Source of the DNA: a virus
Direction: 5' to 3' (one strand)
Virus record (IMG/VR): IMGVR_UViG_3300045988_025866
Location: 1-40,648 of that record
Length of the DNA stretch: 40,648 nt
Shown here: piece after piece, positions 1 through 40,648 of the stretch
Position numbering within the stretch: the stretch's first letter is position 1
Layout of the letters: every line of letters starts with the position of its first letter
Notes under the pieces: generated by a model
The model's input: only the letters and a program-made list of their open reading frames with translations
Database searches by the model: none
What the model was told of the DNA's origin: nothing
Made by a program: the position numbers and the translations under genes

Positions 1-55
1 CCTCTCCTATCCTATCCTCTCCTATCCTATCCTCTCCTATCCTATCCTCTCCTAT
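1..55. repeat. 15-bp tandem repeat CCTCTCCTATCCTAT (3.7 copies), coding (EDRIG)n on the minus strand
   Basis: Direct reading gives (cctct cctat cctat) x3 followed by cctct cctat. Nt 1-49 are identical to nt 40600-40648. Confidence 0.95.
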
Positions 56-454
56 GCAACCATTTGTCTGACATTTGGTTGTCAGTTGGTTGTCAGTTGG
101 TTGCACATCTGACAACCACTGATATTTATTGCCTTCTACCAGTGCTATTTGTTGCATTTCCTCTGCGAATCTAGTGGGTTTCTTTCTATCCTTCCTAATA
201 GAATTGTGTTCTGTCCAATCTGTTATAACTACCACTCCACTGTTAAACAACAGTACATAGTTGCCCTCGATTAGAAGTTTCATGTCTTCTTTCGTTGTGC
301 CAACCAATCGCATGATAGTTTTAGGGTTTCCGACAAAACCATCATCGTCAGCCTCTAGGTTTAAGAAGAAGTATAAAGCCTTTGTTGTAGGAGGTAAGTC
401 AAGAAAATCATCAGTCATTACGACATCTCTACTGAACATCCTTCTATTTGCCAC
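1..454 (-). CDS. Phage replisome organizer / replication initiator, N-terminal part (ORF runs off nt 1 and resumes at the window end)
   Basis: GTG at 454 lies 5 nt after GGAGG (460-464). The translation (M)ANRRMFSRDVVMTDDFLDLPPTTKALYFFLNLEADDDGFVGNPKTIMRLVGTTKEDMKLLIEGNYV shows the Phage_rep_org_N signature. The frame stays open to nt 1 through IGE(DRIGE)n. Confidence 0.85.
   Translation of the reverse strand, partial: MANRRMFSRDVVMTDDFLDLPPTTKALYFFLNLEADDDGFVGNPKTIMRLVGTTKEDMKLLIEGNYVLLFNSGVVVITDWTEHNSIRKDRKKPTRFAEEMQQIALVEGNKYQWLSDVQPTDNQLTTKCQTNGCIGEDRIGEDRIGEDRIGE
63..118. repeat. Iteron cluster, putative phage origin embedded in the replisome organizer gene
   Basis: TTGGTTGTCAG occurs at 75-85 and 86-96, with a partial copy TTGGTTGCA at 97-105. 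An inverted copy CTGACAACC lies at 109-117, and TGTCTGACA lies at 66-73. Confidence 0.6.
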
Positions 455-474
455 TTGTTCCTCCTTTTCTTTTG

Positions 475-545
475 TGTTATAATCAAGTAAATCGTTTTGA
501 TGAACGTTGCACCTTTTGGAGTTTTCCAAGGGTGCTTTTTTTAAT
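475..545 (+). ncRNA. Candidate ~55-nt cis-antisense sRNA (promoter plus intrinsic terminator) opposite the leader of the replisome organizer gene
   Basis: Plus strand carries TTGTTC (455-460), a 17-nt spacer, and TGtTATAAT (475-483). A hairpin GCACC-TTTTGG / CCAA-GGGTGC (509-535) is followed by T7 (536-542). No ORF lies between promoter and terminator. Confidence 0.4.
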
Positions 546-570
546 GCCTACCCTCCCACCGCTGCATGTT

Positions 571-894
571 CTATTGGTTCGCCAAGGATTCTAGGAATGC
601 TTTGATGCCATCTTTCATGGATTCTTCATGCTCCGTGCGTTCAAAGCCCGAGCCGTCAAGCTTAGATACGTTGTATTCGGCTTCTACGATAAGCACTTCG
701 CAGCCAAACACTTCAGCAAGCTTGTCAATGCCAGCTTTTTGTTTTTCGTATGGTTCGATTGGTAGCTGTAGCGCTTTCCAAAGTCGGGAATCAAAAGTCG
801 CTGTAAAAGCTATGTTCCCTTTGTCTTTATAGCTCGTAAGAAAGCTATCCTTTTCGGCGCTGTAAAATACGACTTGTTTGTTATTTTCTTTCAT
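571..894 (-). CDS. Hypothetical protein (107 aa) directly downstream of the adhesin gene
   Basis: ORF with an ATG start. Its start codon lies 3 nt after the adhesin stop. No recognisable motif. Confidence 0.6.
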   Translation of the reverse strand: MKENNKQVVFYSAEKDSFLTSYKDKGNIAFTATFDSRLWKALQLPIEPYEKQKAGIDKLAEVFGCEVLIVEAEYNVSKLDGSGFERTEHEESMKDGIKAFLESLANQ

Positions 895-896
895 GA

Positions 897-2741
897 TTAT
901 TCTTCCTCACCTTCGTTGTACTTCTTAAATCCAAGAGTTAAAGCAGTGATACCTGCTGCAATCACTACCAATCCTAAAGTGCTAGCGACGCCTTCTTTTT
1001 CTCCAGTGTTAGGCAGAACACCACCGTAAACGGCTGTATTTACCGCCTCTTTTGGCTCAGAATCGTTTTTATAAACAACCTCGGTAATTTCTACCTCTTT
1101 CGCTTTCGGAGCGTCTACGGGCTTGCTAGGCGCTTCTTTCGGTGTGCTAGGTTTTTCTGGTGTAGGTTTAGTTGGTTCCTCTGGAATTTCAAGCTCTGGC
1201 AAGTCCAAGATAGGTGCATCATTTGGAACCACTCCACCCTCGAATGGTGGAAGCTCACGTTCTTCTGGAATACCCGGGATGCCACCGTTAAATTCTGGTT
1301 TCTCACGAACTTCTGGGATGCCCGGAATACCACCTTGGAACTCTGGCTTGTCATGTACTGGTGCTTCATTTGGCACTGTGCCGCCGTTCCATTCTGGGAT
1401 TTCCACCTTAGGCGCATCGTTTGGAACCGTACCGATAGGCTCGGTATACTCCGGCAATTCTCTAACTTCTGGAATGCCGGGGATACCACCCTCAAACTCT
1501 GGAATTTCAACTTTTGGAGCTTCACGAGGGATCTCGAATGTTGGTTCGGGTTTATTCTCACCACTGGCATCACCTTTACCACCGACCAAGACGGCACGGC
1601 TAGAAGATGTAGCACCATCATTTTCGGCTTTCAACTCAACCTTGTTGGTTGGGTTGGTTGAATCTTTAACCGCATTGACAAGTTTAGTTTTGTACCAGAT
1701 ATAAACCATACGATCAAGGCGATCCATTTTAATTTCAAACCCGTGGTCTGATTTAGCCATTGACTTGATAAGTTCCATTGCTGACCCTTTATCCGTCCAA
1801 GGTTCAACGCTATCGACATAATTCATTACAAAATAGTCGTCTACAAGCTTTTGATTGTCGCTCATAGTATCGATAAGTGTCACATAGTTTAGGACACGGC
1901 GTGCATAGTTGACACGAATAGTCCAGTCAATCACAGTAGGGTCATCCTTGTCTTGGCTACCCCACTTAGCGACCAATTCATCCTTGCCGATTTCTTGTTC
2001 TTTGCCGATGTTTGCAGTAACGACTGTACCGTTGAAATTAACGGTCACAGGCTTACCTGATTCAACGGCATCCGTCCACTTAGCATCTAACTTCAAGCTC
2101 ATTTGCTTGTTCAATGGGTGGTTTTTGAAGTAGTCATTGAAGATTGTAGTAACTGTTTGGGTTGCTACGTTCGTAGACGCTTTACCAACCACGTTATTCT
2201 CTGGGTTTTTCACATCAAAGTCATAATTTGTTTGGAAAGTGATTTCCTTTGGCAAGTTGAATGTGACTTTATCGCCTTCGTTGATAGCCATATCGTCAGG
2301 GAATTTCACATCCTTGTACTCGACTGTGAAGCCTGAATATTTTCCGTCTCCATTAGATTGGTCGATAGCAACATCTGGATTTGTTACTTGAATATTGTCA
2401 CCTTCTTTTACAAACTCAGTAGGCTGTTTAGGTGTTTCTGCTACTGGTTCAGTGACTGGTGCTGTTTCAGTAGTTGGTGTGCTTGCTACTGGTGTTTCGG
2501 TAACTGGCGCTGTTTCCACTGGTTGCACTGTTTCAGATGGTGTCACGGTCACGTTGCCAGCGTTGTCAGCAGTATAGACATTAGATACAGTAGGTTGATT
2601 ATCTACTACTGGTTGAGCAGTTTCGTCCGCTGATACTGATCCAGCACCGATAAGCAATGCTGTAGCAAGTGCCAATGTGCCGCACAAACCGTATGCTTTA
2701 GTGTTTTTGAAAGATGGTTTTGCAATTACTTGTGTTTTCAT
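897..2741 (-). CDS. LPXTG cell-wall-anchored surface adhesin, MSCRAMM / collagen-binding (Cna-like) type, with Pro-rich repeats
   Basis: ATG at 2741 follows AAGGAG. The signal peptide is MKTQVIAKPSFKNTKAYGLCGTLALATALLIGAGSVSADE. The A-region carries IDWTIRVNY, typical of Cna-type collagen-binding folds. Degenerate repeats read PEF(E/Q/N)GGIPGIPE(V/E)RE. LPNTG (1002-1016) is followed by a hydrophobic helix and the tail KKYNEGEEE. Confidence 0.9.
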   Translation of the reverse strand: MKTQVIAKPSFKNTKAYGLCGTLALATALLIGAGSVSADETAQPVVDNQPTVSNVYTADNAGNVTVTPSETVQPVETAPVTETPVASTPTTETAPVTEPVAETPKQPTEFVKEGDNIQVTNPDVAIDQSNGDGKYSGFTVEYKDVKFPDDMAINEGDKVTFNLPKEITFQTNYDFDVKNPENNVVGKASTNVATQTVTTIFNDYFKNHPLNKQMSLKLDAKWTDAVESGKPVTVNFNGTVVTANIGKEQEIGKDELVAKWGSQDKDDPTVIDWTIRVNYARRVLNYVTLIDTMSDNQKLVDDYFVMNYVDSVEPWTDKGSAMELIKSMAKSDHGFEIKMDRLDRMVYIWYKTKLVNAVKDSTNPTNKVELKAENDGATSSSRAVLVGGKGDASGENKPEPTFEIPREAPKVEIPEFEGGIPGIPEVRELPEYTEPIGTVPNDAPKVEIPEWNGGTVPNEAPVHDKPEFQGGIPGIPEVREKPEFNGGIPGIPEERELPPFEGGVVPNDAPILDLPELEIPEEPTKPTPEKPSTPKEAPSKPVDAPKAKEVEITEVVYKNDSEPKEAVNTAVYGGVLPNTGEKEGVASTLGLVVIAAGITALTLGFKKYNEGEEE

Positions 2742-2797
2742 GGTATAATCTCCTTGGTATAATTTTCTTGCACAGGCCCTTACCTGTGCTTTTTTAG
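2741..2797 (+). promoter_or_regulatory. Two tandem extended -10 boxes plus an intrinsic terminator, antisense to the adhesin translation-initiation region (candidate 26-40-nt antisense RNA)
   Basis: TGGTATAAT occurs at 2741-2749 and 2755-2763 on the plus strand. GCACAGG-ccctta-CCTGTGC (2770-2789) is followed by T6 (2790-2795). Confidence 0.35.
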
Positions 2798-2962
2798 TGC
2801 TCTCAACGTGCACCCATAGCCCCACCGTGTCATGTTTTAATTTTTATTAGACTTGTGAATGGGAAAATTAGGAAAAAAGTAATTTAGTAAAGATTTTTTT
2901 GGGGAAAGGTATAAGTTACACTCCACGGCAGGGCCATGGCTACACGCTGAAAGATAGTAATA

Positions 2963-3118
2963 TTATCGGTTTCCGTATTTTGCTAAGAGGTATTCCTCAC
3001 GTTTTTTGCGAGCTTCATATTTGCGTTCGTTTTCCTCGTATGGTGTCCATACGGGTTCGAAGAAATATTCTGGTTCTTGTTTTTCTTTTACAAATAGCCA
3101 TTTAAGTAGTTTTTTCAT
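2963..3118 (-). CDS. Small hypothetical protein (51 aa), below the ORF-track size cut-off
   Basis: ATG at 3118 is preceded by GAAAGAAAGGAATTAACA. The translation is MKKLLKWLFVKEKQEPEYFFEPVWTPYEENERKYEARKKREEYLLAKYGNR, ending in TAA at 2963-2965. Confidence 0.5.
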   Translation of the reverse strand: MKKLLKWLFVKEKQEPEYFFEPVWTPYEENERKYEARKKREEYLLAKYGNR

Positions 3119-3263
3119 TGTTAATTCCTTTCTTTCCCTAACCGCACTAGAGAACTAGTGAGGATTATTAATATATTTATTTTTAGGAGAGAATTCATAA
3201 TGTCATTTGTTTAGTACTGCTTACGTTCCCTCACTAGCTCACTGTTACGGCTAGGGTGTTATG

Positions 3264-3545
3264 TTAGGCAATTTCTTGCCAGTTATTGTTAAACCAATCT
3301 CTGACTGCATCCCGTGGGTATCTGATTTGTGACCCTCGACCTTTATCGATTTTTGGAAAACCGTCAAGGTTGGTTATTCGTAAAAATTCGGTATAGTTGC
3401 CAATTCCGAGCATTGACTGACACTGTTTAGCAGTTAAAATCATGGGTAGCGTTTCGTCTAAATCGAACGCTTTTGTCTTATCTGCTATCACTGCGGTCAG
3501 CATGCTATCGAACTGGTCAGCTAGTGGTTTGAATGGGTCTGTCAT
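3264..3545 (-). CDS. Excisionase-family / MerR-like HTH DNA-binding protein (93 aa)
   Basis: An internal ATG at 3545 follows GAGGGG and sits just after the stop of the upstream gene (3550). The segment ILTAKQCQSMLGIGNYTEFLRITNLDGFPKIDKGRGSQIRYPRDAVRDWF resembles the Xis/AlpA-type winged helix. Confidence 0.65.
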   Translation of the reverse strand: MTDPFKPLADQFDSMLTAVIADKTKAFDLDETLPMILTAKQCQSMLGIGNYTEFLRITNLDGFPKIDKGRGSQIRYPRDAVRDWFNNNWQEIA

Positions 3546-3549
3546 GGTG

Positions 3550-4086
3550 TTAACCCCTCTCAAGAGCGATAATCTCTTTTTGTTTTGGTGTCTCACGAAT
3601 TTCAAATTTTGTGAAATCGTCGTAAGATAGATTTTCCAAGAATTTGACGGCATTTTTAGCGTCAACATGTTTGATATTGGTGTACTTGGTCACATTGAAA
3701 GCTTTCTTCAAACGTGAGTACATCAAGCGGATAAACTGACCTTTCTTGGATGCGAACAAGTTATCGCTTGGATGTGTTTTCTGTTCTTCAAAGTAGAAAT
3801 CAGCAAACACGCCAGCTTTTTGAAAGACAATGCTCTTGATTTTAGTAGCTTCACCATCATCGATATGGACTTTCTTGTTAACTTCTTCGACAAGCAACTC
3901 AATGTCAGTGAGCTTTTGATTTGTCTTCTTAACGTTTCTGTCCATTTCTTCCTTGATTCCGATAACCTCTTCCAAAAGCTGTTGGTTAACGGTGCTTTGG
4001 GCAACTAGATTCATCGCTTGTTTCTTCTGCATTTCGACTGTTTCAGCGAGCAGATTTTCTTTTTTCTTGTCTTTTTTCTTACTCAT
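3550..4086 (-). CDS. ORF6C-domain protein (antirepressor-associated C-terminal domain)
   Basis: Coiled-coil N-terminus. The C-terminal segment FIRLMYSRLKKAFNVTKYTNIKHVDAKNAVKFLENL matches the ORF6C pattern as I recall it. The start overlaps the upstream gene by 8 nt. Confidence 0.6.
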   Translation of the reverse strand: MSKKKDKKKENLLAETVEMQKKQAMNLVAQSTVNQQLLEEVIGIKEEMDRNVKKTNQKLTDIELLVEEVNKKVHIDDGEATKIKSIVFQKAGVFADFYFEEQKTHPSDNLFASKKGQFIRLMYSRLKKAFNVTKYTNIKHVDAKNAVKFLENLSYDDFTKFEIRETPKQKEIIALERG

Positions 4087-4978
4087 TTATGATTTCTCCT
4101 TCTATGATCGTTCTTCCATTTTCTGGAACGATTTTATTCATTTCCTCTAACCAGTTTTCAGTTAGCGTTAGGATGTCCCTTAATTTCTCAATCTGGGCAT
4201 CCTTGCCAATTCCTTGAATAAGCGTTTTAAATCTGAGTGGTGCCATCTTGTTATCAAAGAAATCTTCGAATTCTGACACTAGGTTACTGAGTGTAAAGAT
4301 GTTAGAAACACTGTTTTCTAGCTTCTCTTTGTCCGCTCGTAAGTGTTCGATAGATTCTTTCAAGGCTAGTGCTTCCGAGGTTTCCTTTTCGAGCATTTCA
4401 TAAGACGCTTCTTTAAGTCGCAAGCTACGTTTGACTGAATCAAGCTCATCCGTTAGGTCTTTATTCTTGCCTAGTAGTTGCTTGTTAAGGTCTTGTGTAG
4501 CTTGGTAATCTTGTGGAATGATTTCCTTTTCGATTACCTTTTCAGTGGTCTTGGTTTGTTTGACACGTTCCAACTCACCCTTGACCGCTTCTAGTGCTTG
4601 GTCTTTGAGTTTGAGACGACGCTTGACCTCTTGCAGTTCTCTGACCGTTGGTGATTCGCCTTGCTCAATCTTTTCAATCTGCTCTTGCTTCTCTTCTTCT
4701 GGAAGTGTTGCGATGAGGTGTAAAGCGGTCGTTCCTAAATGTCGTAACGTTTCGACTTTTGGCAACTCGTCGGCAATCTTTATTGATTTATAAGCAAAAT
4801 CTTTATCAATTCCAATACTTTCATGCCACTCTCTAAATTGTCCGTGTGTTAGGTCGTTTTCTTTAACGTACTTCAACCGTCTTCCAATTTCCCAAATTGA
4901 TTCACCGGCTAATTTTTGGTGGTGCCTTATTTCTAATTCAATTTGAGAAAGGTTGTTCGATAATGCTATTTCGTTCAT
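4079..4978 (-). CDS. DUF3102-like early protein with long coiled-coil C-terminus
   Basis: The N-terminal segment IWEIGRRLKYVKENDLTHGQFREWHESIGIDKDFAYKSIKIADELP fits the DUF3102 pattern (HG.W..W ... A.....A). The remainder is a heptad-rich coiled coil. Confidence 0.6.
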   Translation of the reverse strand: MNEIALSNNLSQIELEIRHHQKLAGESIWEIGRRLKYVKENDLTHGQFREWHESIGIDKDFAYKSIKIADELPKVETLRHLGTTALHLIATLPEEEKQEQIEKIEQGESPTVRELQEVKRRLKLKDQALEAVKGELERVKQTKTTEKVIEKEIIPQDYQATQDLNKQLLGKNKDLTDELDSVKRSLRLKEASYEMLEKETSEALALKESIEHLRADKEKLENSVSNIFTLSNLVSEFEDFFDNKMAPLRFKTLIQGIGKDAQIEKLRDILTLTENWLEEMNKIVPENGRTIIEGEIINE

Positions 4979-4995
4979 TCCTATTCCTTTCCGTT

Positions 4996-5004
4996 TGATA
5001 TAAT
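4996..5004 (+). promoter_or_regulatory. Extended -10 promoter TGATATAAT for the plus-strand gene 5030-5356
   Basis: The sequence gTTTGATATAAT (4993-5004) sits 26 nt upstream of the ATG. The same 11-mer TTTGATATAAT recurs at 5697-5707. Confidence 0.5.
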
Positions 5005-5029
5005 AGTTTTAAAAGAAACGAGGTACTGT

Positions 5030-5356
5030 ATGATTATCATTTCACGAAAAGCTAGAAAATTATTAAAATCATTGCTTGATATCCGAAAATCCCAAGAATC
5101 TCCTCGCATTAAACCTGAACAGTATGAAAAACTGATAGATGAACAAGGCGAACCGCTCGGCGAATTGGTTTACCACAAGTTAGTGATTCAAGACATCGTC
5201 CATGACATCGCCGTTACTGACGAGGGGATTTATTTTTATCAAGCCTACAAAGAACATAATAGATATCTTTGGTTGACTTCATTTTGGTTTCCGCTAGCCG
5301 TTGCTTTCGTGACAACTGCTATCACACTAGCTGTCAATTTTTTATTTTTTAAATAA
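5030..5356 (+). CDS. Hypothetical C-terminally membrane-anchored protein (108 aa), opposite strand to the surrounding early genes
   Basis: RBS is AACGAGG. It has its own extended -10 promoter. The C-terminal TM segment is LWLTSFWFPLAVAFVTTAITLAVNFLFF. Confidence 0.6.
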   Translation: MIIISRKARKLLKSLLDIRKSQESPRIKPEQYEKLIDEQGEPLGELVYHKLVIQDIVHDIAVTDEGIYFYQAYKEHNRYLWLTSFWFPLAVAFVTTAITLAVNFLFFK

Positions 5357-5476
5357 AACCCAAAAAATCAACGTTGCCAGAAATACCCCTATAAGACTTC
5401 CGATAATTGCAAGTGCAACATCGTATCCGTCTAAATTCCACTCAAAGAATTCTTTGAGTTTTTTTAGTGTCTTCAT
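5342..5476 (-). CDS. Small hydrophobic peptide (44 aa), below the ORF-track cut-off
   Basis: ATG at 5476 follows AGAAAGGAGCAAAC. The translation is MKTLKKLKEFFEWNLDGYDVALAIIGSLIGVFLATLIFWVLFKK. Its 3' end overlaps the convergent plus-strand gene by 15 nt. Confidence 0.45.
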   Translation of the reverse strand: MKTLKKLKEFFEWNLDGYDVALAIIGSLIGVFLATLIFWVLFKK

Positions 5477-5681
5477 GTTTGCTCCTTTCTAAATTAGCTT
5501 TATCAGATAATGCTTTTTCCTTTAAAACATTAAGACCGAATGGATCTTCTTTGATTTCCAAGCAGGTTTTTTCAATCTGTTCAGCTTGGTTGATAAGTAT
5601 TTCACGGTCTTTGTTTCTTGCCTTGAGTTCTGCGTCGATAGACTCAAGGCTTTTTGCGATGCGTTCTAATATTTCGTTCAT
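5442..5681 (-). CDS. Hypothetical coiled-coil protein (79 aa)
   Basis: ATG follows GAAAGGA. Charged helical sequence with no recognised motif. Confidence 0.55.
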   Translation of the reverse strand: MNEILERIAKSLESIDAELKARNKDREILINQAEQIEKTCLEIKEDPFGLNVLKEKALSDKANLERSKHEDTKKTQRIL

Positions 5682-5698
5682 AGTATCCTTTCTGAATT

Positions 5699-5707
5699 TG
5701 ATATAAT
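5699..5707 (+). promoter_or_regulatory. Extended -10 promoter TGATATAAT for the plus-strand gene 5740-5955
   Basis: The sequence aTTTGATATAAT (5696-5707) sits 33 nt upstream of the ATG. Confidence 0.5.
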
Positions 5708-5739
5708 TGACTTATCTTTGATGAAAGGAGAGACAAGTC

Positions 5740-5955
5740 ATGATTGAAAAATTTGATGATTTCTTAGAAGCTAAGTATCCAGAAATTCGAAGCGGTATCA
5801 ACGAATCTGTTAGCGAAGCTTTGAAATCACTTGCTGACAACGGTATTGAGTTTGATAGCGAAGTTGTTGCTGTTTCAAGTGCTATCGCATTCAATACAAC
5901 TTGCGAGATTCTAAAGGCTTATGATTCATATGTGCAAGAGCACAAGAATCAATAG
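5740..5955 (+). CDS. Hypothetical acidic protein (71 aa), opposite strand to the early operon
   Basis: Strong RBS AAAGGAGAG, its own promoter and its own intrinsic terminator. Confidence 0.6.
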   Translation: MIEKFDDFLEAKYPEIRSGINESVSEALKSLADNGIEFDSEVVAVSSAIAFNTTCEILKAYDSYVQEHKNQ

Positions 5956-5983
5956 TATTCATTACAATCTCTAAAGCTTTATT

Positions 5984-6015
5984 AGCGTTTACCACTTTTG
6001 GTAGGCGCTTTTTTT
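5984..6015 (+). terminator. Rho-independent terminator of the 5740-5955 gene
   Basis: AGCGTTTACCA-cttt-TGGTAGGCGCT forms an 11-bp stem including two G-U pairs. It is followed by T7 (6009-6015). Confidence 0.7.
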
Positions 6016-6065
6016 GTCCAATATACGGATATCGTTTTGGTTTCATGTTTGTTCCCTTTCTAATC

Positions 6066-6083
6066 TATACGAAATTTCGTATA
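6066..6083. promoter_or_regulatory. Perfect 18-bp palindrome TATACGAAATTTCGTATA, candidate distal operator
   Basis: It lies 17 nt downstream of the cro-like stop. A 14/18 match (tatgctaattttcgtaca, 6337-6354) overlaps the -10 and spacer of the lytic promoter. A weaker copy lies at 6399-6416. Confidence 0.5.
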
Positions 6084-6099
6084 TCTAGGTTAAAAAAAT

Positions 6100-6303
6100 T
6101 TAGGCTTCGACACGTTCGCTGAATAGGTATTCTAATTCATATTCTGGGAAGAATGCCTTCTTGATAGCTACTGTTTCACCAAAACTGAAATCTGTAACAC
6201 CGTTAATCTTGCTACGAACCGTGCGGTAATCAACTTGTAGCAGGTCAGCGATGTCTACTAATGTAACGCCTTTGCTCTTACGAATTTCTTCGATGTTTTT
6301 CAT
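6100..6303 (-). CDS. cro: Cro-like XRE-family HTH regulator (67 aa)
   Basis: HTH segment GVTLVDIADLLQVDYRTVRSKING. RBS is GGAAGGAGGAAG. The gene is divergent from the cI-like gene. Confidence 0.85.
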   Translation of the reverse strand: MKNIEEIRKSKGVTLVDIADLLQVDYRTVRSKINGVTDFSFGETVAIKKAFFPEYELEYLFSERVEA

Positions 6304-6332
6304 TTGCTTCCTCCTTCCTTAAGCTTGATTTA

Positions 6333-6361
6333 AGTATATGCTAATTTTCGTACACTGTCAA
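6333..6361 (-). promoter_or_regulatory. Early lytic promoter (PR-like)
   Basis: On the minus strand: TTGACA (6361-6356), a 17-nt spacer, then TATACT (6338-6333). Confidence 0.7.
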
Positions 6362-6392
6362 CACAAAAGTACGATTTTTTTTACTTTTTTTA

Positions 6393-6421
6393 TTTACCTA
6401 TACAATTTTCTGTGTTAATAT
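6393..6421 (+). promoter_or_regulatory. Lysogeny promoter for the cI operon
   Basis: TTTACC (6393-6398), a 17-nt spacer containing TG at 6413-6414, then TAATAT (6416-6421). Confidence 0.5.
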
Positions 6422-6453
6422 ATATGTAGAAATAAAAATGAGGGTTATAAAAA

Positions 6454-6798
6454 ATGCAGGCTGAAGAAAGAATTAAAGAGCTTATTATAGCTAAATATGG
6501 AAATGTTAGAGCTTTTGCGACAGAAAGCGGCATCTCTTATACTACTGTTCGCTCTATTTTGGAACGTGGTATCATGAACGCAAAAGCTGAGAATGTTTTT
6601 AAGATATGTCATTTATTGGGGATATCACCGGATACTGTCGCAGATTGGGGAGTTTCCACCGAACAACAGACCAACGCCCATGACATAGACAGCATTATTG
6701 ACAACGCCATGATGTTCGATGGTAAACCGCTAACTGATGATGATAAGCGGGCAATCCGGGGCATCATTGCGGGCTACATGAACAGTAAGGAACAGTGA
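6454..6798 (+). CDS. cI: cI-like XRE-family repressor (114 aa)
   Basis: HTH segment NVRAFATESGISYTTVRSILERG. It is divergent from the cro-like gene and is followed by an ImmA-like protease gene. Confidence 0.85.
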   Translation: MQAEERIKELIIAKYGNVRAFATESGISYTTVRSILERGIMNAKAENVFKICHLLGISPDTVADWGVSTEQQTNAHDIDSIIDNAMMFDGKPLTDDDKRAIRGIIAGYMNSKEQ

Positions 6799-6804
6799 GG
6801 TGCT

Positions 6805-7173
6805 ATGACTGAAAACGAATTGCTTGAGCAGTTCAACGTGTCTCTTTGTGAGTTTAGTTCTAACGAGTGGCCTAGAAACGGTTTTATCGACCCTATAAAC
6901 AGGGTGGTCTATATCAATAAGGATTTAGCCCCAGAAATACGTTTGAAGGTCATTTTACATGAATTGGGCCACCTAGAGCACAACTCTAAAGACTATGAGC
7001 GTTTGCGTGAGAAATACGAAGCTCAAGCTAATAGAATTATGATTCACGAGCTACTAAAAAATGAAAACCTAGATGATTTTAACTACGTCCATTTTATGGA
7101 AAAATATAATCTCACCACGATTTGTGATGAGACTTTTGTAAAAGACGAATACTTAAAGATGGTGAGGAATTGA
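6805..7173 (+). CDS. ImmA/IrrE-family zinc metallopeptidase
   Basis: HEXXH motif in ILHELGHLEH. The position immediately after the repressor gene is typical. Confidence 0.8.
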   Translation: MTENELLEQFNVSLCEFSSNEWPRNGFIDPINRVVYINKDLAPEIRLKVILHELGHLEHNSKDYERLREKYEAQANRIMIHELLKNENLDDFNYVHFMEKYNLTTICDETFVKDEYLKMVRN

Positions 7174-7746: not shown

Positions 7747-8808
7747 ATGGCATCATACAGAAAACGAGAAAACGGCTGGGAATATCGGATAAGTTTTAAA
7801 GACCGCCTTGGAAAATATAAACGGAAAGAAAAAGGTGGTTTCCGTACTAAATCTGAAGCTATCAAGGCTGCTGCTGAGATGGAATTAAAATTACAAGAGA
7901 CTATCAATGTTGATGAAGATATCACTCTTTACGCTTATTTCAAGCAGTGGTGCGAGGTTTATAAGAAACCTACGGTATCACTGGTAACTTATAAGGCATA
8001 TATCAACACCCAACGTAAGATAGAATTATTCTTTGGTGATAAGAAACTGAAATCTGTTACTGCCACACAATACCAGCGTGTGCTGAATAGCTACGCTAAA
8101 ACTCACGCTCAAGATACTGTCGAGCGTTTTAATGTGCATGTAAAATCGTGCGTTGAAATGGCAGTGCATGAAGGATACATCAAGCGTAACTTTTGCAAGT
8201 TTGCCAAAATCAATGCAAAGAACAAAGGCCGTGATATTGAAACGAAATTCCTAGAGGTCGAAGAATACGAGCGATTGATCTACGAGACAAGCAAGCATCC
8301 AGAATATGCGTCTTATGCAGCACTCTATATTATCGCTAAAACTGGTATCCGATTCGCTGAGTGTCTAGGTTTAACAGTGGATGATGTCAACCGAGATACT
8401 GGCATGTTGTCGGTCAATAAAACGTGGGACTATAAGAATAATACTGGTTTCTTACCGACAAAAACAAAAAGCAGTATCCGAGAGATACCGCTTGATGATG
8501 AATTTATAAATTTTATTGACCAACTGCCACCTACTGAAGACGGTAGACTACTACCCTCACTATCCAACAATGCAGTTAATAAGACCTTGCGTAAAATTGT
8601 TGGGCGTGAAGTACGTGTCCACTCATTAAGGCACACTTACGCTAGCTATCTGATAGCCCACGATATCGACTTGATTTCTGTGTCGCAAGTTTTAGGGCAT
8701 GAGAATCTAAACATCACACTGGAAGTCTATGCCCACCAATTACAAGAGCAGAAATCACGAAACGATGAAAAGATAAAACAAATTTGGGGCAGATTTGGGG
8801 CAGAATAG
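7747..8808 (+). CDS. int: Tyrosine-recombinase phage integrase
   Basis: 353 aa. The N-terminus shows an SAM-like arm-binding pattern, MASYRKRENGWEYRISFKD. The C-terminal catalytic region contains RFAECLGL, VHSLRHTYAS, LGHENLNITLEVYAH (R..HxxR..Y). Confidence 0.92.
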   Translation: MASYRKRENGWEYRISFKDRLGKYKRKEKGGFRTKSEAIKAAAEMELKLQETINVDEDITLYAYFKQWCEVYKKPTVSLVTYKAYINTQRKIELFFGDKKLKSVTATQYQRVLNSYAKTHAQDTVERFNVHVKSCVEMAVHEGYIKRNFCKFAKINAKNKGRDIETKFLEVEEYERLIYETSKHPEYASYAALYIIAKTGIRFAECLGLTVDDVNRDTGMLSVNKTWDYKNNTGFLPTKTKSSIREIPLDDEFINFIDQLPPTEDGRLLPSLSNNAVNKTLRKIVGREVRVHSLRHTYASYLIAHDIDLISVSQVLGHENLNITLEVYAHQLQEQKSRNDEKIKQIWGRFGAE

Positions 8809-9113: not shown

Positions 9114-9488
9114 TTATCGTTCCCAGATTACACCATTGTCGGCATAACCCACATAGTCCACACCGTCAATAGGCTTCATGCCACGGCCTTCAATCAGCAA
9201 GTAGCCGTCTTTGTCCCGCCAAAAGTCGAGCATGTCTGCCACTTCTTCCCAAGATTGCTCTTTCAATTCGTCTGCATACACATCTTGGATAAGCTCTTTG
9301 ATTTCTCTTTCAGTATCAGTCATGAGTGCGTCCCTTCTTTCTGCGATAAGTTCCTCTAGTTCGTTCAAATCCGAACCCGTAGCGTGATTTCTAATGAAGC
9401 TACGAGCGGACGAACGCTTTGATAAGTAATTACGATGCTCTCTGTTCTGCGAGTTCCATTTTTTTGTCGCTTTTGCTTGTGCGTCCAT
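9114..9488 (-). CDS. Hypothetical moron protein (124 aa), basic N-terminus and acidic C-terminus
   Basis: ATG with RBS AAAGGAGTAGCACA. N-terminal segment KKWNSQNREHRNYLSKRSSARSFIRN. No family recognised. Confidence 0.65.
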   Translation of the reverse strand: MDAQAKATKKWNSQNREHRNYLSKRSSARSFIRNHATGSDLNELEELIAERRDALMTDTEREIKELIQDVYADELKEQSWEEVADMLDFWRDKDGYLLIEGRGMKPIDGVDYVGYADNGVIWER

Positions 9489-10084: not shown

Positions 10085-10804
10085 TTACATATCTGTGCAA
10101 TCGTCCAAGTACTGGTCTTCAACCCATTGAGCGCTATCTGGATGGTTGATTCGAGACCAGCCGTTTAGTTTCTCATAAACACGGACTCGTGTGCCTGCTG
10201 GGAGAAATTCCTTGTCTTGGCTATCGATGCGAGGACCAGCTTCAACGTAGTAGTCAGTGGTAAGAGTGCCTTCATAATAAGGCTTGTCTGATTTCTCTAA
10301 ACGGGTATTAACATCTAGTTCACGCTCAAATTCGCTTTGGGCTGGTGCTGGAAGAGGTGTTCCACTCTCACGGAAGACAATTTCACGAGGGCGACCGTTT
10401 AGATCCCAAATGTAATTATAATCATTTTCAGTCACTCCGTCCATGCCGTAGTTGCAGTGGATAGCCGTGCTATCACTAGTCATAATCAATACGTGGCCAA
10501 ACGCACCGAGCGAGCTTGAACCATCACGAGGTGCCCAAATAACGACATCTCCACGTTGCCCATCAAATGTGCCATCTACAGCATCGTAAATCTTCGCATA
10601 ACCAATAGCTGGAAGTGCTTGTTGAAGTGATTCTGTGTTGTTATTTAAGTTGATTTCGAGCGCATAGCTTACCGCTGATGAGCAGTCAAATTCGATGCGT
10701 CCGTCGCCGTCGGCGTCGTTTCCGTAACGGTCACCCATGTCGTAATGTACTGGGATTGATTGTAGATGGTGCATACGTGCAATACTTGACTCAATTTTAC
10801 TCAT
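10085..10804 (-). CDS. Endolysin: Amidase_5 (Pal-like) catalytic domain plus C-terminal SH3b-like wall-binding domain
   Basis: FDCSSAVSYAL, RGDVVIWA, GHVLIM and AIHCNYGMDGVTEND align with the Dp-1 Pal amidase motifs YDCSSS / RGDIFIWG / GHTGMF / IIHCNYAYDGISVND. The C-terminal segment GTRVRVYEKLNGWSRINHPDSAQWVEDQYL is SH3b-like. Confidence 0.85.
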   Translation of the reverse strand: MSKIESSIARMHHLQSIPVHYDMGDRYGNDADGDGRIEFDCSSAVSYALEINLNNNTESLQQALPAIGYAKIYDAVDGTFDGQRGDVVIWAPRDGSSSLGAFGHVLIMTSDSTAIHCNYGMDGVTENDYNYIWDLNGRPREIVFRESGTPLPAPAQSEFERELDVNTRLEKSDKPYYEGTLTTDYYVEAGPRIDSQDKEFLPAGTRVRVYEKLNGWSRINHPDSAQWVEDQYLDDCTDM

Positions 10805-10826: not shown

Positions 10827-11057
10827 TTAATCTTGTTTTGGTTCGTGGTAGCCCAACGCTTGTTCGCTATCTCCAAGACCCTTAGTCGTTGGGTCTGTAA
10901 CGATACCCAAAATTACCAAGATCACAACGAAAGTATTAACACCCTCTTGGATATTGTGTGGAATCTCAAGTCCGAATTGTTGCAACATCAAAAAGATTGC
11001 TGAGATAAGAGCTACCAAAGTAGCTTTGTTTTGCAAACGTAGTTTAAAATTAATCAT
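10827..11057 (-). CDS. Holin, phiLC3 / SPP1 holin family (76 aa)
   Basis: The start is taken at the internal ATG 11057, which overlaps the upstream stop (ATGATTAA). Translation begins MINFKLRLQNKATLVALISAIFLMLQQF and contains DPTTKGLGDSEQALGY, the family hallmark. Confidence 0.8.
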   Translation of the reverse strand: MINFKLRLQNKATLVALISAIFLMLQQFGLEIPHNIQEGVNTFVVILVILGIVTDPTTKGLGDSEQALGYHEPKQD

Positions 11058-11469
11058 TGTCTTCTTCCTCCTCGGTAAGATTAAATTTATCCTTATCAAT
11101 ATTTTTCTTGACAAATCTGTCAATGAAGGGAATTTCAACCCCTAGAGCCGATAAGCTAGCCAAAATACTAGCCCCGTACGCTGATAGCATGGCGAAAATA
11201 AAAGCATCCATAGCACCGCCTAGATTCATGAAAACCATAAACGGATAGGATACCATTACGATAATCAACATAGCCGTGTGGCTAACCAGTCCTTTTCGAA
11301 ACCTACGGCTCGAAAATTCATGAAAAGCCCATGACCTTGAAACGCCCAATACGATATCAGCAACGATAACAAGCATGAGTAGGAACACCCAGAGGTGTTC
11401 GTCTATGCCATGCTCATAGAAATCTTTGACGACTTCAAACACGCCAAAGATGCCATCTGGTTTGTGCAT
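11050..11469 (-). CDS. Holin, Phage_holin_4_1 (TcdE-like) family (139 aa)
   Basis: Three TM segments and a highly charged C-terminus EEEEDND. It lies directly upstream of the second holin and the lysin. Confidence 0.75.
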   Translation of the reverse strand: MHKPDGIFGVFEVVKDFYEHGIDEHLWVFLLMLVIVADIVLGVSRSWAFHEFSSRRFRKGLVSHTAMLIIVMVSYPFMVFMNLGGAMDAFIFAMLSAYGASILASLSALGVEIPFIDRFVKKNIDKDKFNLTEEEEDND

Positions 11470-40234: not shown

Positions 40235-40648
40235 CTAGAAGCCCCATTCTTCATTGATTTCTGACTCTGTGTTAGTGTTGGTCTTTTGTTTTTTAGCTTC
40301 ACGGATCGCTTTGCTGTTTCTGACAAGTTCAACCGTCATTAGATTGTCTTGTTTCCAACGGTTAAGGATGGCTTTAATATAGGCAAAATTGGCTTTGCCT
40401 TGATTAACCGCTTCTTTTAGAGCTTCAAGGATAACGTCAGCGTTAAAGTCTTCTAGCATGTACTGCAAATCTTCCATTTGTAATGGTGATAGAGCTTTTC
40501 CTGTTTCTTGCTCAAAAGATTTGTAGAGATTTGCAAAATCTTGATTGAAAGGAGTGGCGGGGGTTGGTTGTTTTTCTTCTCTTACCTCTCCTCTCCTATC
40601 CTCTCCTATCCTATCCTCTCCTATCCTATCCTCTCCTATCCTATCCTC
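40235..40648 (-). CDS. Replisome organizer, C-terminal DnaD/DnaB_2-like part (continuation of 1-454)
   Basis: The frame is open from the window end. It reads EDRIGEDRIGEDRIGEDRRGEVREEKQPTPATPF..FEQETGKALSPLQMEDLQYMLEDFNADVILEALKEAVNQGKANFAYIKAILNRWKQDNL, which matches the DnaD C-terminal domain pattern. The repeat frame is the same as at nt 1-55. Confidence 0.85.
   Translation of the reverse strand, partial: EDRIGEDRIGEDRIGEDRRGEVREEKQPTPATPFNQDFANLYKSFEQETGKALSPLQMEDLQYMLEDFNADVILEALKEAVNQGKANFAYIKAILNRWKQDNLMTVELVRNSKAIREAKKQKTNTNTESEINEEWGF
40585..40648. repeat. Pentamer/15-bp tandem repeat, other side of the window-spanning array
   Basis: The array reads cctct cctct cctat, then (cctct cctat cctat) x3, then cctc. 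The last 49 nt equal nt 1-49. Confidence 0.95.

Follow-up and report, generated by a model that had tools for sequence, protein, structure and literature searches.

A predicted wall-anchored, MSCRAMM-like adhesin gene in the early/replication operon of a temperate Streptococcus salivarius phage

Why would a temperate phage carry, in the midst of its early and replication genes, a gene for a protein that appears destined for the wall of its own host cell? The question is raised by the window analysed here, the whole 40,648-nt stretch of DNA of IMG/VR record IMGVR_UViG_3300045988_025866, whose positions supply the coordinates given below, except where another locus is named. It derives from a temperate phage of the oral bacterium Streptococcus salivarius. 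On its minus strand, between a helix-turn-helix (HTH) gene and the replisome organizer, lies a 614-aa open reading frame (ORF), hereafter the adhesin, which is preceded by a conserved, structured 221-nt leader. On balance, we consider it probable that this is an accessory adhesin gene within the early/replication operon and that it is expressed together with the early genes.

The ORF as listed spans 897–2825 on the minus strand and would encode 642 aa from a GTG at 2825. Sequence conservation places the true start at the ATG at 2741 and not at that GTG: the ATG lies 8 nt past a conserved AAGGAG (2750–2755), it aligns with the start codon of all relatives, and the register between Shine–Dalgarno (SD) sequence and ATG is kept in at least 70 of them. 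Each of the elements named in the initial annotation (signal peptide, Thr/Pro stalk, A region with the motif IDWTIRVNY, Pro-rich repeats, LPNTG at 1002–1016, transmembrane helix and charged tail) was recovered, in the following arrangement.

897–2741, minus strand: adhesin coding sequence, 614 aa, stop codon at 897–899 (ORF listing, Pfam, NCBIfam, conserved SD/ATG)
2628–2741, minus strand: signal peptide, aa 1–38 (MKTQVIAKPSFKNTKAYGLCGTLALATALLIGAGSVSA / DE), with a putative cleavage site (hydrophobicity; near-invariant in 45 homologues)
2388–2627, minus strand: Thr/Pro/Val-rich N-terminal stalk, aa 39–118 (composition; length varies among homologues)
1557–2387, minus strand: predicted ligand-binding A region, aa 119–395, with two Ig-like domains, Big_8 and Collagen_bind (Pfam, AlphaFold2 model, Foldseek)
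1062–1556, minus strand: Pro/Glu-rich wall-spanning region with five SIALI-17-type repeats (NCBIfam NF043031, Tandem Repeats Finder, regular expression)
900–1016, minus strand: sorting signal comprising LPNTG, a hydrophobic helix and the tail KKYNEGEEE (sequence motifs)

The signal peptide has a positively charged N-region, a hydrophobic core at aa 19–33 (windowed hydrophobicity peaking at aa 19) and the sequence SVSA/DE. Thr, Val and Pro make up 21%, 17% and 14% of aa 41–118, respectively, and IDWTIRVNY occupies aa 271–279, in a non-repetitive region. A regular-expression search placed five PE[FW]xGG repeat cores within aa 414–515, starting at aa 414, 449, 466, 482 and 498, and Tandem Repeats Finder reported a 48-nt period at 1254–1353. 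A Pro/Lys-rich wall-spanning stretch separates the repeats from LPNTG (aa 576–580), which is followed by a hydrophobic maximum at about aa 584–605 and by the charged tail. Relatives keep the sorting motif as one of several LPXTG variants (LPNTG, LPATG, LPETG, LPSTG and LPHTG). The Pfam hidden Markov model (HMM) Gram_pos_anchor, which had been proposed as a check on the anchor, matches relatives although it does not reach E 0.01 on the window copy. Taken by its motifs, the adhesin is supported as a sortase-type wall-anchored surface protein.

What does its head resemble? Two Pfam families score above their gathering cut-offs: Big_8 at aa 144–222 (E 6.8e-12, 45.9 bits against a cut-off of 22.9) and Collagen_bind at aa 255–374 (E 7.7e-12, 46 bits against 27.5). 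The NCBIfam model for SIALI-17 repeats (NF043031) matched at 2.2e-21, whereas Cna_B had no Pfam match at E 0.01, the stalk being built from SIALI-17 Pro-rich repeats instead; no family for the adhesin itself was found in PHROGs. An AlphaFold2 model covering aa 112–430, of moderate quality because the available homologues are all at least 65% identical, was compared with the PDB using Foldseek. Nearly all of the 50 best matches were two-domain adhesin A regions (E 5e-10 to 6e-7, 10–17% identity; 5e-10 to 1e-7 for Cna, Sdr, Clf, Cnm and ACE), including those of Cna, SdrC/D/E/G, ClfA/B, Bbp, Cnm, RspB, ACE, FnBPA, UafA, Srr1 and Candida Als3; one of the 50 was a lipoxygenase/zonadhesin entry. The adhesin fold expected at aa 120–420 is thus borne out by both profile and structure matches, and the head is modelled as two tandem domains of the DEv-IgG type, as in the MSCRAMMs (microbial surface components that recognise adhesive matrix molecules). 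The original label 'Cna/collagen-binding-like' holds for the fold class and falls short beyond it: the protein has no sequence match to a solved MSCRAMM and, because Cna_B repeats are absent, it is not a typical member of the Cna family. The model identifies it as a distant MSCRAMM-like protein. The segment after the second domain, aa 380–395 (AVLVGGKGDASG), is where a latch strand for ligand capture by dock-lock-latch or collagen hug would be expected; it is conserved in homologues and was modelled at a predicted local distance difference test (pLDDT) score below 50.

The presence of such a gene in a phage contig could reflect an assembly chimera or a functionless, decaying passenger. The contig is assembly-derived, the window ends within a repeat array, and a few relatives are truncated or frameshifted (L115, L177, L207, L096 and L107; loci are designated here by L numbers). 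However, the isolated phages YMC-2011, SA-TP2 and Javan534, 535, 536 and 539 have the gene annotated at this very junction; of these, YMC-2011 and SA-TP2 were sequenced from induced particles. Hundreds of independent contigs carry the gene, 87 of 99 sampled slots hold a Cna-type adhesin ORF, and the ratio of nonsynonymous to synonymous substitution rates (dN/dS) is ~0.1. The chimera or passenger explanation is effectively refuted, and comparison of the junctions confirms that the gene is not chimeric host DNA joined at an assembly break, one of the outcomes against which the initial annotation had asked it to be checked.

The initial annotation had also asked whether related phages carry the gene at this position, and there it was found, not only in the isolates listed above but also in IMG/VR, where 225 stretches encode a relative; a protein search returned thousands of relatives, many of them on contigs of 38–51 kb. 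The modules that flank it differ. The replication genes are Gam/Sak4/helicase in YMC-2011, replisome organizer/DnaC/RecT in SA-TP2 and AAA_23/AAA_24/helicase in Javan535; integrated prophages have an ERF/DUF1351/SSB module, with tyrosine or serine integrases, and the flanking regulators are either Ant or DUF3102/ORF6C. As annotation, an LPXTG, collagen-binding-domain protein in a phage is already public: the YMC-2011 product is named 'LPXTG cell wall anchor domain-containing protein', those of Javan534, 535 and 539 'sialidase' (a misnomer), and those of Javan536 hypothetical proteins. No functional or comparative description of the gene was found in the literature searched.

The position is also a slot with exchangeable contents. 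We surveyed 99 IMG/VR loci of one leader haplotype in which the sequence extends far enough downstream. As first gene behind the leader, 87 loci have one for a Cna-type adhesin and five others one for an Adhesin_P1_N plus GbpC head with an unchanged SIALI-17 stalk and LPNTG anchor, which brings wall-anchored adhesins to 92 of 99 (about nine in ten, for one leader variant). The slot was empty in three loci, with a 106-aa backbone ORF directly after the leader, and the remainder comprised two short or remnant ORFs and two unclassified ORFs (239 and 247 aa). In the GbpC-type loci (L180 4215–6029, also L125, L133, L194 and L206) the head alone, which is antigen I/II V-region-like, has been swapped. 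Empty sites are represented by L110, L147, L174 and L200, and in empty-site phages an ORF of the 107-aa family described below is the first gene past the leader. Short or remnant ORFs occur in L115, L149, L177 and L207. In L115 (5118–5267) and L207 a 49-aa ORF fuses the N terminus of the 106-aa ORF to the membrane helix and tail of the adhesin, and L177 has a frameshifted copy with a 21-aa start; from these decay products it follows that the adhesin can be lost by deletion. In the Streptococcus vestibularis phage SVep1 (L087 3424–3999), the gene behind the same leader and SD sequence encodes a 191-aa beta-solenoid protein of the YdcK type that has no signal peptide, and in Streptococcus thermophilus phages the leader is present and the adhesin absent. 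The slot thus lies where the early regulatory genes give way to the replication module, its cargo is polymorphic, and the adhesin is present in some phages and absent from otherwise homologous ones, as is the case for morons. The leader on one side and the right junction on the other would offer homology for cargo exchange, and the junction is a candidate recombination linker.

How has the gene evolved within this slot? Pairwise Nei–Gojobori estimates were made over 104 distinct coding sequences, with synonymous divergence (dS) saturated at ~1–1.5 and the ratios correspondingly approximate. The two head domains had dN/dS of 0.06 and 0.09, the repeats and anchor ~0.2, and the signal peptide and stalk ~0.3 (these last two spanning 0.2–0.34). 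The binding head is under strong purifying selection, and we read the gene as functional and old. Its G+C content (GC) is 44.6%, against 41.2% for the genome, and its GC at third codon positions (GC3) is 37.6%, just below that of three other measured genes (39–45%); neither value points to a recent arrival from a foreign source. That the head is conserved suggests a ligand that is conserved as well, and not a target in an arms race.

This conservation bears on whether the protein might serve in superinfection exclusion (Sie) or receptor masking, as an early wall protein that covers or alters the phage receptor and so protects the infected cell or lysogen, or stops progeny from adsorbing to debris. 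Early expression and a surface location would fit the logic of Sie or Llp-type proteins. Phage-encoded exclusion surface proteins exist in this phage group, an example being Ltp of TP-J34 (PMC3952083). However, the known Sie proteins of these phages are small lipoproteins encoded in the lysogeny module, the head under discussion has an adhesin fold, and the gene shows strong purifying selection rather than diversification. The alternative cargo of the slot is another classical adhesin head of the GbpC/antigen I/II type, which fits adhesion better than exclusion. The same is true of the phages of dairy-adapted S. thermophilus, which are under intense superinfection and keep the leader without the adhesin; their host has lost many surface proteins and often sortase. 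We regard a role in exclusion as improbable and retain an adhesin as the preferred reading.

What, then, is the leader from whose SD sequence and ATG the adhesin starts exactly? Its parts are as follows.

2742–2962, minus strand: conserved structured RNA leader, 221 nt (folding, covariation); equivalents at L088 2860–3126 and L089 2890–3127
About 2953–2918, minus strand: 5′ arm of the long stem
About 2835–2800, minus strand: 3′ arm of the long stem, followed by an A-run
2789–2770, minus strand: hairpin of 7–8 bp
2755–2750, minus strand: SD sequence AAGGAG

The long stem encloses a variable, G-poor, AT-rich interior of 85–100 nt, and the leader folds with an energy of −71.7 kcal/mol (z = −6.0). 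Across 73 distinct sequences, 99.3% of the cells in 31 leader pairs are paired, compared with 26–42% in controls with slid partners; compensatory double changes occur in 11 of the 31 pairs, and the covariation score exceeds that of all 500 shuffles. G·U cells (340) far outnumber A·C cells (13), and the structure is therefore selected on the sense strand; a G·T-tolerant strand asymmetry does not by itself exclude single-stranded DNA. No credible family was found in Rfam, where all matches were chance ones (E >3). The leader matches 106 phage records, mostly of S. thermophilus phages. It is complete, with an identical SD and ATG, in a Brussowvirus (CHPC951) and a Moineauvirus (MM25), both of them virulent phages of S. 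thermophilus, in which it follows a small ORF and opens an 11-codon ORF that leads directly to the Gam-like first gene of the replication module. By this sequence distribution the leader is an element of the phage backbone.

Most likely, the leader is a processing, stability or translation element of the early transcript, and an RNase III-type site is our leading guess. RNase III processing hairpins occur in the early polycistronic mRNAs of phages, such as the T7 R sites, lambda sib and SP82 early RNA. The leader resembles these in having a strand-specific, covarying stem of ~25–33 bp between early genes, and differs from them in the unusually long (~85–100 nt), variable and G-poor interior that the stem encloses and in having no Rfam family. 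Two other candidates were rejected. A DNA hairpin of the integron attC or single-strand-origin type was discarded, there being no matching recombinase and the element lying in a transcribed 5′ region. The second candidate, a site for Rho within the G-poor interior, was set aside because streptococci are not generally known to carry Rho. In one locus (L019, ~5950–5970) the loop of the small hairpin is inverted (GGGCCCTAACCC versus GGGTTAGGGCCC) and the stem is kept, which suggests hairpin-mediated inversion and an indifference to loop sequence.

Is the gene part of the early operon, or does it merely lie within it? The sequence features around the slot are listed here.

6333–6361, minus strand: candidate early promoter pR, TTGACA-17-TATACT, divergent from the cI-like gene (best consensus match)
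2963–3118, minus strand: 51-aa backbone ORF, phrog_1022, which precedes the leader in every relative examined
571–894, minus strand: 107-aa backbone ORF, phrog_2486, which starts 2 nt past the adhesin stop
505–570, minus strand: right junction (GGTGGGAGGGTAGGCATTAAA), then an A-run and hairpin (513–532), before the ribosome-binding site of the replisome organizer; same junction after the slot in L110, L155, L088 and S. thermophilus phages
1–454, minus strand: N-terminal part of the replisome organizer, GTG at 454–452, running off the window end (GEDRI iterons; match to the 'replication protein' of SW22)

Read along the minus strand, the order is candidate pR, small ORFs, DUF3102, ORF6C antirepressor, the HTH gene (3264–3668), the 51-aa ORF, the leader and the adhesin, followed by the 107-aa ORF, the replisome organizer, a DnaC-like gene, RecT, exonuclease, SSB and RusA. 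The gene order agrees with the initial annotation, which had put the adhesin on the lytic strand between the HTH gene and the replisome organizer, in an early/replication operon. The idea of a cassette with the 51-aa and 107-aa ORFs at its flanks does not stand as a unit, both of these being backbone families. The 107-aa family is present in pneumococcal, Streptococcus pyogenes, Streptococcus suis and other phages without the adhesin and is missing downstream of the adhesin in Javan535. The 107-aa ORF was considered as a dedicated partner or chaperone of the adhesin and rejected, as its backbone family is also present in adhesin-less phages.

Scans by simple sigma-70 consensus and terminator matching predicted no sense-strand terminator from candidate pR through the replication genes and no convincing sense-strand promoter in the leader, and no conserved promoter was seen by eye in the leader interior across 70 sequences. 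The numbers of sigma-70 and terminator matches equal the shuffle expectation. A moron in the strict sense would have its own promoter and terminator, and consensus scans predict neither for the adhesin. The hairpin at 2770–2789 could terminate antisense transcription only. All eight terminator-like hairpins in window positions 1–7000 have their T-run on the plus strand, antisense to the early operon; two of them, at 513–532 and 2770–2789, bracket the adhesin and the 107-aa ORF, reflecting either a composition bias of the strand or antisense blocks.

The strongest argument for production of the adhesin with the early genes comes from relatives in which it sits elsewhere. Relatives of the A region (67–83% identity) occur in genomes of the S. 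salivarius group, Streptococcus parasanguinis and Streptococcus gingivalis, and the leader is present in only 2 of 19 A-region loci, those of S. salivarius and one metagenome-assembled genome (MAG) contig. In seven prophage loci from S. parasanguinis genomes and related MAGs (L104 7732–9362, from S. parasanguinis DD19, and L095, L097, L098, L101, L102 and L105), a ResIII/DEAD helicase gene comes before the adhesin and a PriCT_2/AAA_25 primase gene after it. The helicase stop and the adhesin ATG are 14–21 nt apart, and 9–20 nt separate the adhesin stop from the following ORF; in five of these seven loci that ORF encodes the primase. In other loci the adhesin is found behind the primase (S. gingivalis), behind a DnaC-like gene or behind RecT/DUF1351/SSB/RusA. 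The number of insertion points is thus at least five, and every one is in the early/replication region on the early-gene strand, with gaps to the neighbouring genes of 2–24 nt (2 nt to the next gene in the window); at most of them the tight gaps leave no room for a private promoter or terminator. The proposal that the adhesin could be made from early lytic transcripts is strengthened by this embedding, with its gaps of 9–24 nt in the S. parasanguinis prophages, by the lack of a predicted sense-strand terminator and by the use of a backbone SD/ATG.

An alternative is classical lysogenic conversion, in which the adhesin would be made in uninduced lysogens from an unrecognised promoter in the AU-rich interior of the leader or upstream of the 51-aa ORF and would aid colonisation by the lysogen, with read-through early transcripts being processed or silenced at the long stem. 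The phage is indeed temperate, as seen from the following features.

7747–8808, plus strand: tyrosine integrase, adjoining the lysis genes
6454–6798, plus strand: cI-like repressor
Plus strand, with the cI-like and integrase genes: ImmA-like protease
10085–10804, minus strand: Amidase_5 lysin
11050–11469, minus strand: holin

All lytic genes are on the minus strand, and the integrase, cI-like and ImmA-like genes are on the plus strand beside the lysis genes; this layout makes the window the circularly permuted genome of a temperate phage. Prophage accessory surface proteins usually work by lysogenic conversion, a conserved head is what would be expected of a trait that benefits the host, and the long, AT-rich, variable leader interior could hide a promoter. 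A transcript that started in the loop would lack the 5′ arm and escape the stem, in a manner resembling the logic of lambda sib. However, the leader showed no conserved promoter of the sigma-70 type, strictly virulent phages of S. thermophilus use the identical leader for replication genes, and the S. parasanguinis prophages have no intergenic room for a promoter. We hold classical lysogenic conversion to be unlikely, though far less so than a role in exclusion, and the anatomy of the locus argues at least as much for early lytic expression as for lysogenic conversion.

According to the preferred reading of an early-expressed accessory adhesin, induction or infection would lead to transcription of the gene from the early promoter, along with the early/replication genes; in lysogens the protein would be made too wherever the operon is expressed through leakiness or in a plasmid state. 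The phage YMC-2011 is reported to persist extrachromosomally. The protein would be exported by Sec and covalently linked to peptidoglycan by host sortase A, and the conserved head would bind a ligand that is itself conserved in the oral or gut niche, for example a protein of the host matrix or of saliva, or the surface of another cell. A cell carrying or producing the phage may in this way stay attached where susceptible hosts are dense. The gene may act in induced or infected cells, in lysogens, or in both.

Several points weigh against this reading. Neither the single protein nor a 45-sequence profile found a match when searched against PDB sequences. Confidence in the head model is low to moderate (pLDDT 59.8, predicted template modelling score 0.38), and Foldseek template modelling (TM) scores are only 0.3–0.4. 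'Cna/collagen-binding' is a statement about the modelled fold, Collagen_bind being the name of a family. The timing of expression is read from the arrangement of genes, and consensus scans could miss a non-canonical promoter in the ~85-nt interior of the leader. On a cell about to lyse, the benefit of a lytic-phase adhesin would be hypothetical, and it could be chiefly by being expressed at a low level in lysogens that the gene matters.

A bolder version, which we put forward tentatively and hold less likely than not, joins three elements: a lytic-phase adhesin that would glue the cell to mucosa, pellicle or neighbouring cells before burst, a slot with swappable heads, and a covarying leader that would be a new RNA element, family-wide in Aliceevansviridae-like phages, gating or processing the early transcript where the replication module begins. 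If true, a lytic-phase adhesin would raise transmission under constant salivary flow.

How does the locus compare with known systems? It shares with the MSCRAMMs (Cna of Staphylococcus aureus, ACE of Enterococcus faecalis, Cnm of Streptococcus mutans, SdrG and ClfB) the signal peptide, the two-Ig A region and the LPXTG signal, and these are its top Foldseek matches; it differs in its low identity to them (10–17%, with no PDB sequence match), in having a SIALI-17 stalk in place of Cna_B or serine–aspartate (SD) repeats, and in being phage-encoded. SasX, encoded by a phiSPbeta-like prophage of S. aureus, is likewise a sortase-anchored, colonisation-type surface protein on a temperate phage. However, SasX is short, lacks an MSCRAMM head and is treated as lysogen-expressed, whereas the adhesin lies in the early/replication operon and is near-universal in one phage group. 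The lambdoid morons bor and lom, in the sense of Hendrix, are also extra host-interaction genes present in some phages and absent from similar ones; unlike them, the adhesin has no detected promoter or terminator of its own, gaps of 2–24 nt and a small difference in GC. PblA and PblB of Streptococcus mitis phage SM1 are adhesins of an oral-streptococcus phage whose production is tied to the lytic programme, but they are virion tail proteins that are released by lysis and rebind wall choline, whereas the adhesin is non-structural and has its own signal peptide and LPXTG motif. The GbpC and antigen I/II adhesins are related through the sister phages (L180) in which Adhesin_P1_N and GbpC occupy the slot, joined to the stalk and anchor seen here; their head has a different fold, and the window copy is not of the GbpC type.

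Three features of the remaining sequence deserve mention. Both window ends (1–60 and 40560–40648) lie in one array of 15-nt iterons (AGGAGAGGATAGGAT) that encode the GEDRI repeats of the replisome organizer; the sequence is therefore a circular contig cut inside the repeat, and the array is probably the phage origin. A plain end-to-end join of the window shifts the reading frame, so that the repeat number is probably mis-assembled. Two uncharacterised ORFs occupy classical accessory positions: a 124-aa ORF (9114–9488, minus strand, phrog_2277) flanked by the lysin and the integrase/attP side, a place occupied by AcrIIA6 in SA-TP2, and a 108-aa ORF (5030–5356, plus strand, phrog_12206) with a hydrophobic C terminus, within the early region.

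What is new at this locus is the logic of expression, with embedding in the early/replication region at several independent positions, together with the swappable-head slot and the covarying backbone leader. Embedding at several positions in different species does not fit prophage cargo that is expressed in lysogens from its own promoter, and it prompts the question of whether the productive cycle of phages includes a remodelling of the cell surface for adhesion. The leader, for its part, is conserved in industrially important phages of S. thermophilus and adds an uncharacterised regulatory element to a phage family that has been well studied. Few colonisers of the human mouth and upper gut are as abundant as S. 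salivarius. With a wall-anchored adhesin in some nine of every ten sampled slots of one leader variant and strong purifying selection on the binding head, its phages therefore probably affect the manner or the timing of their hosts' attachment to surfaces.

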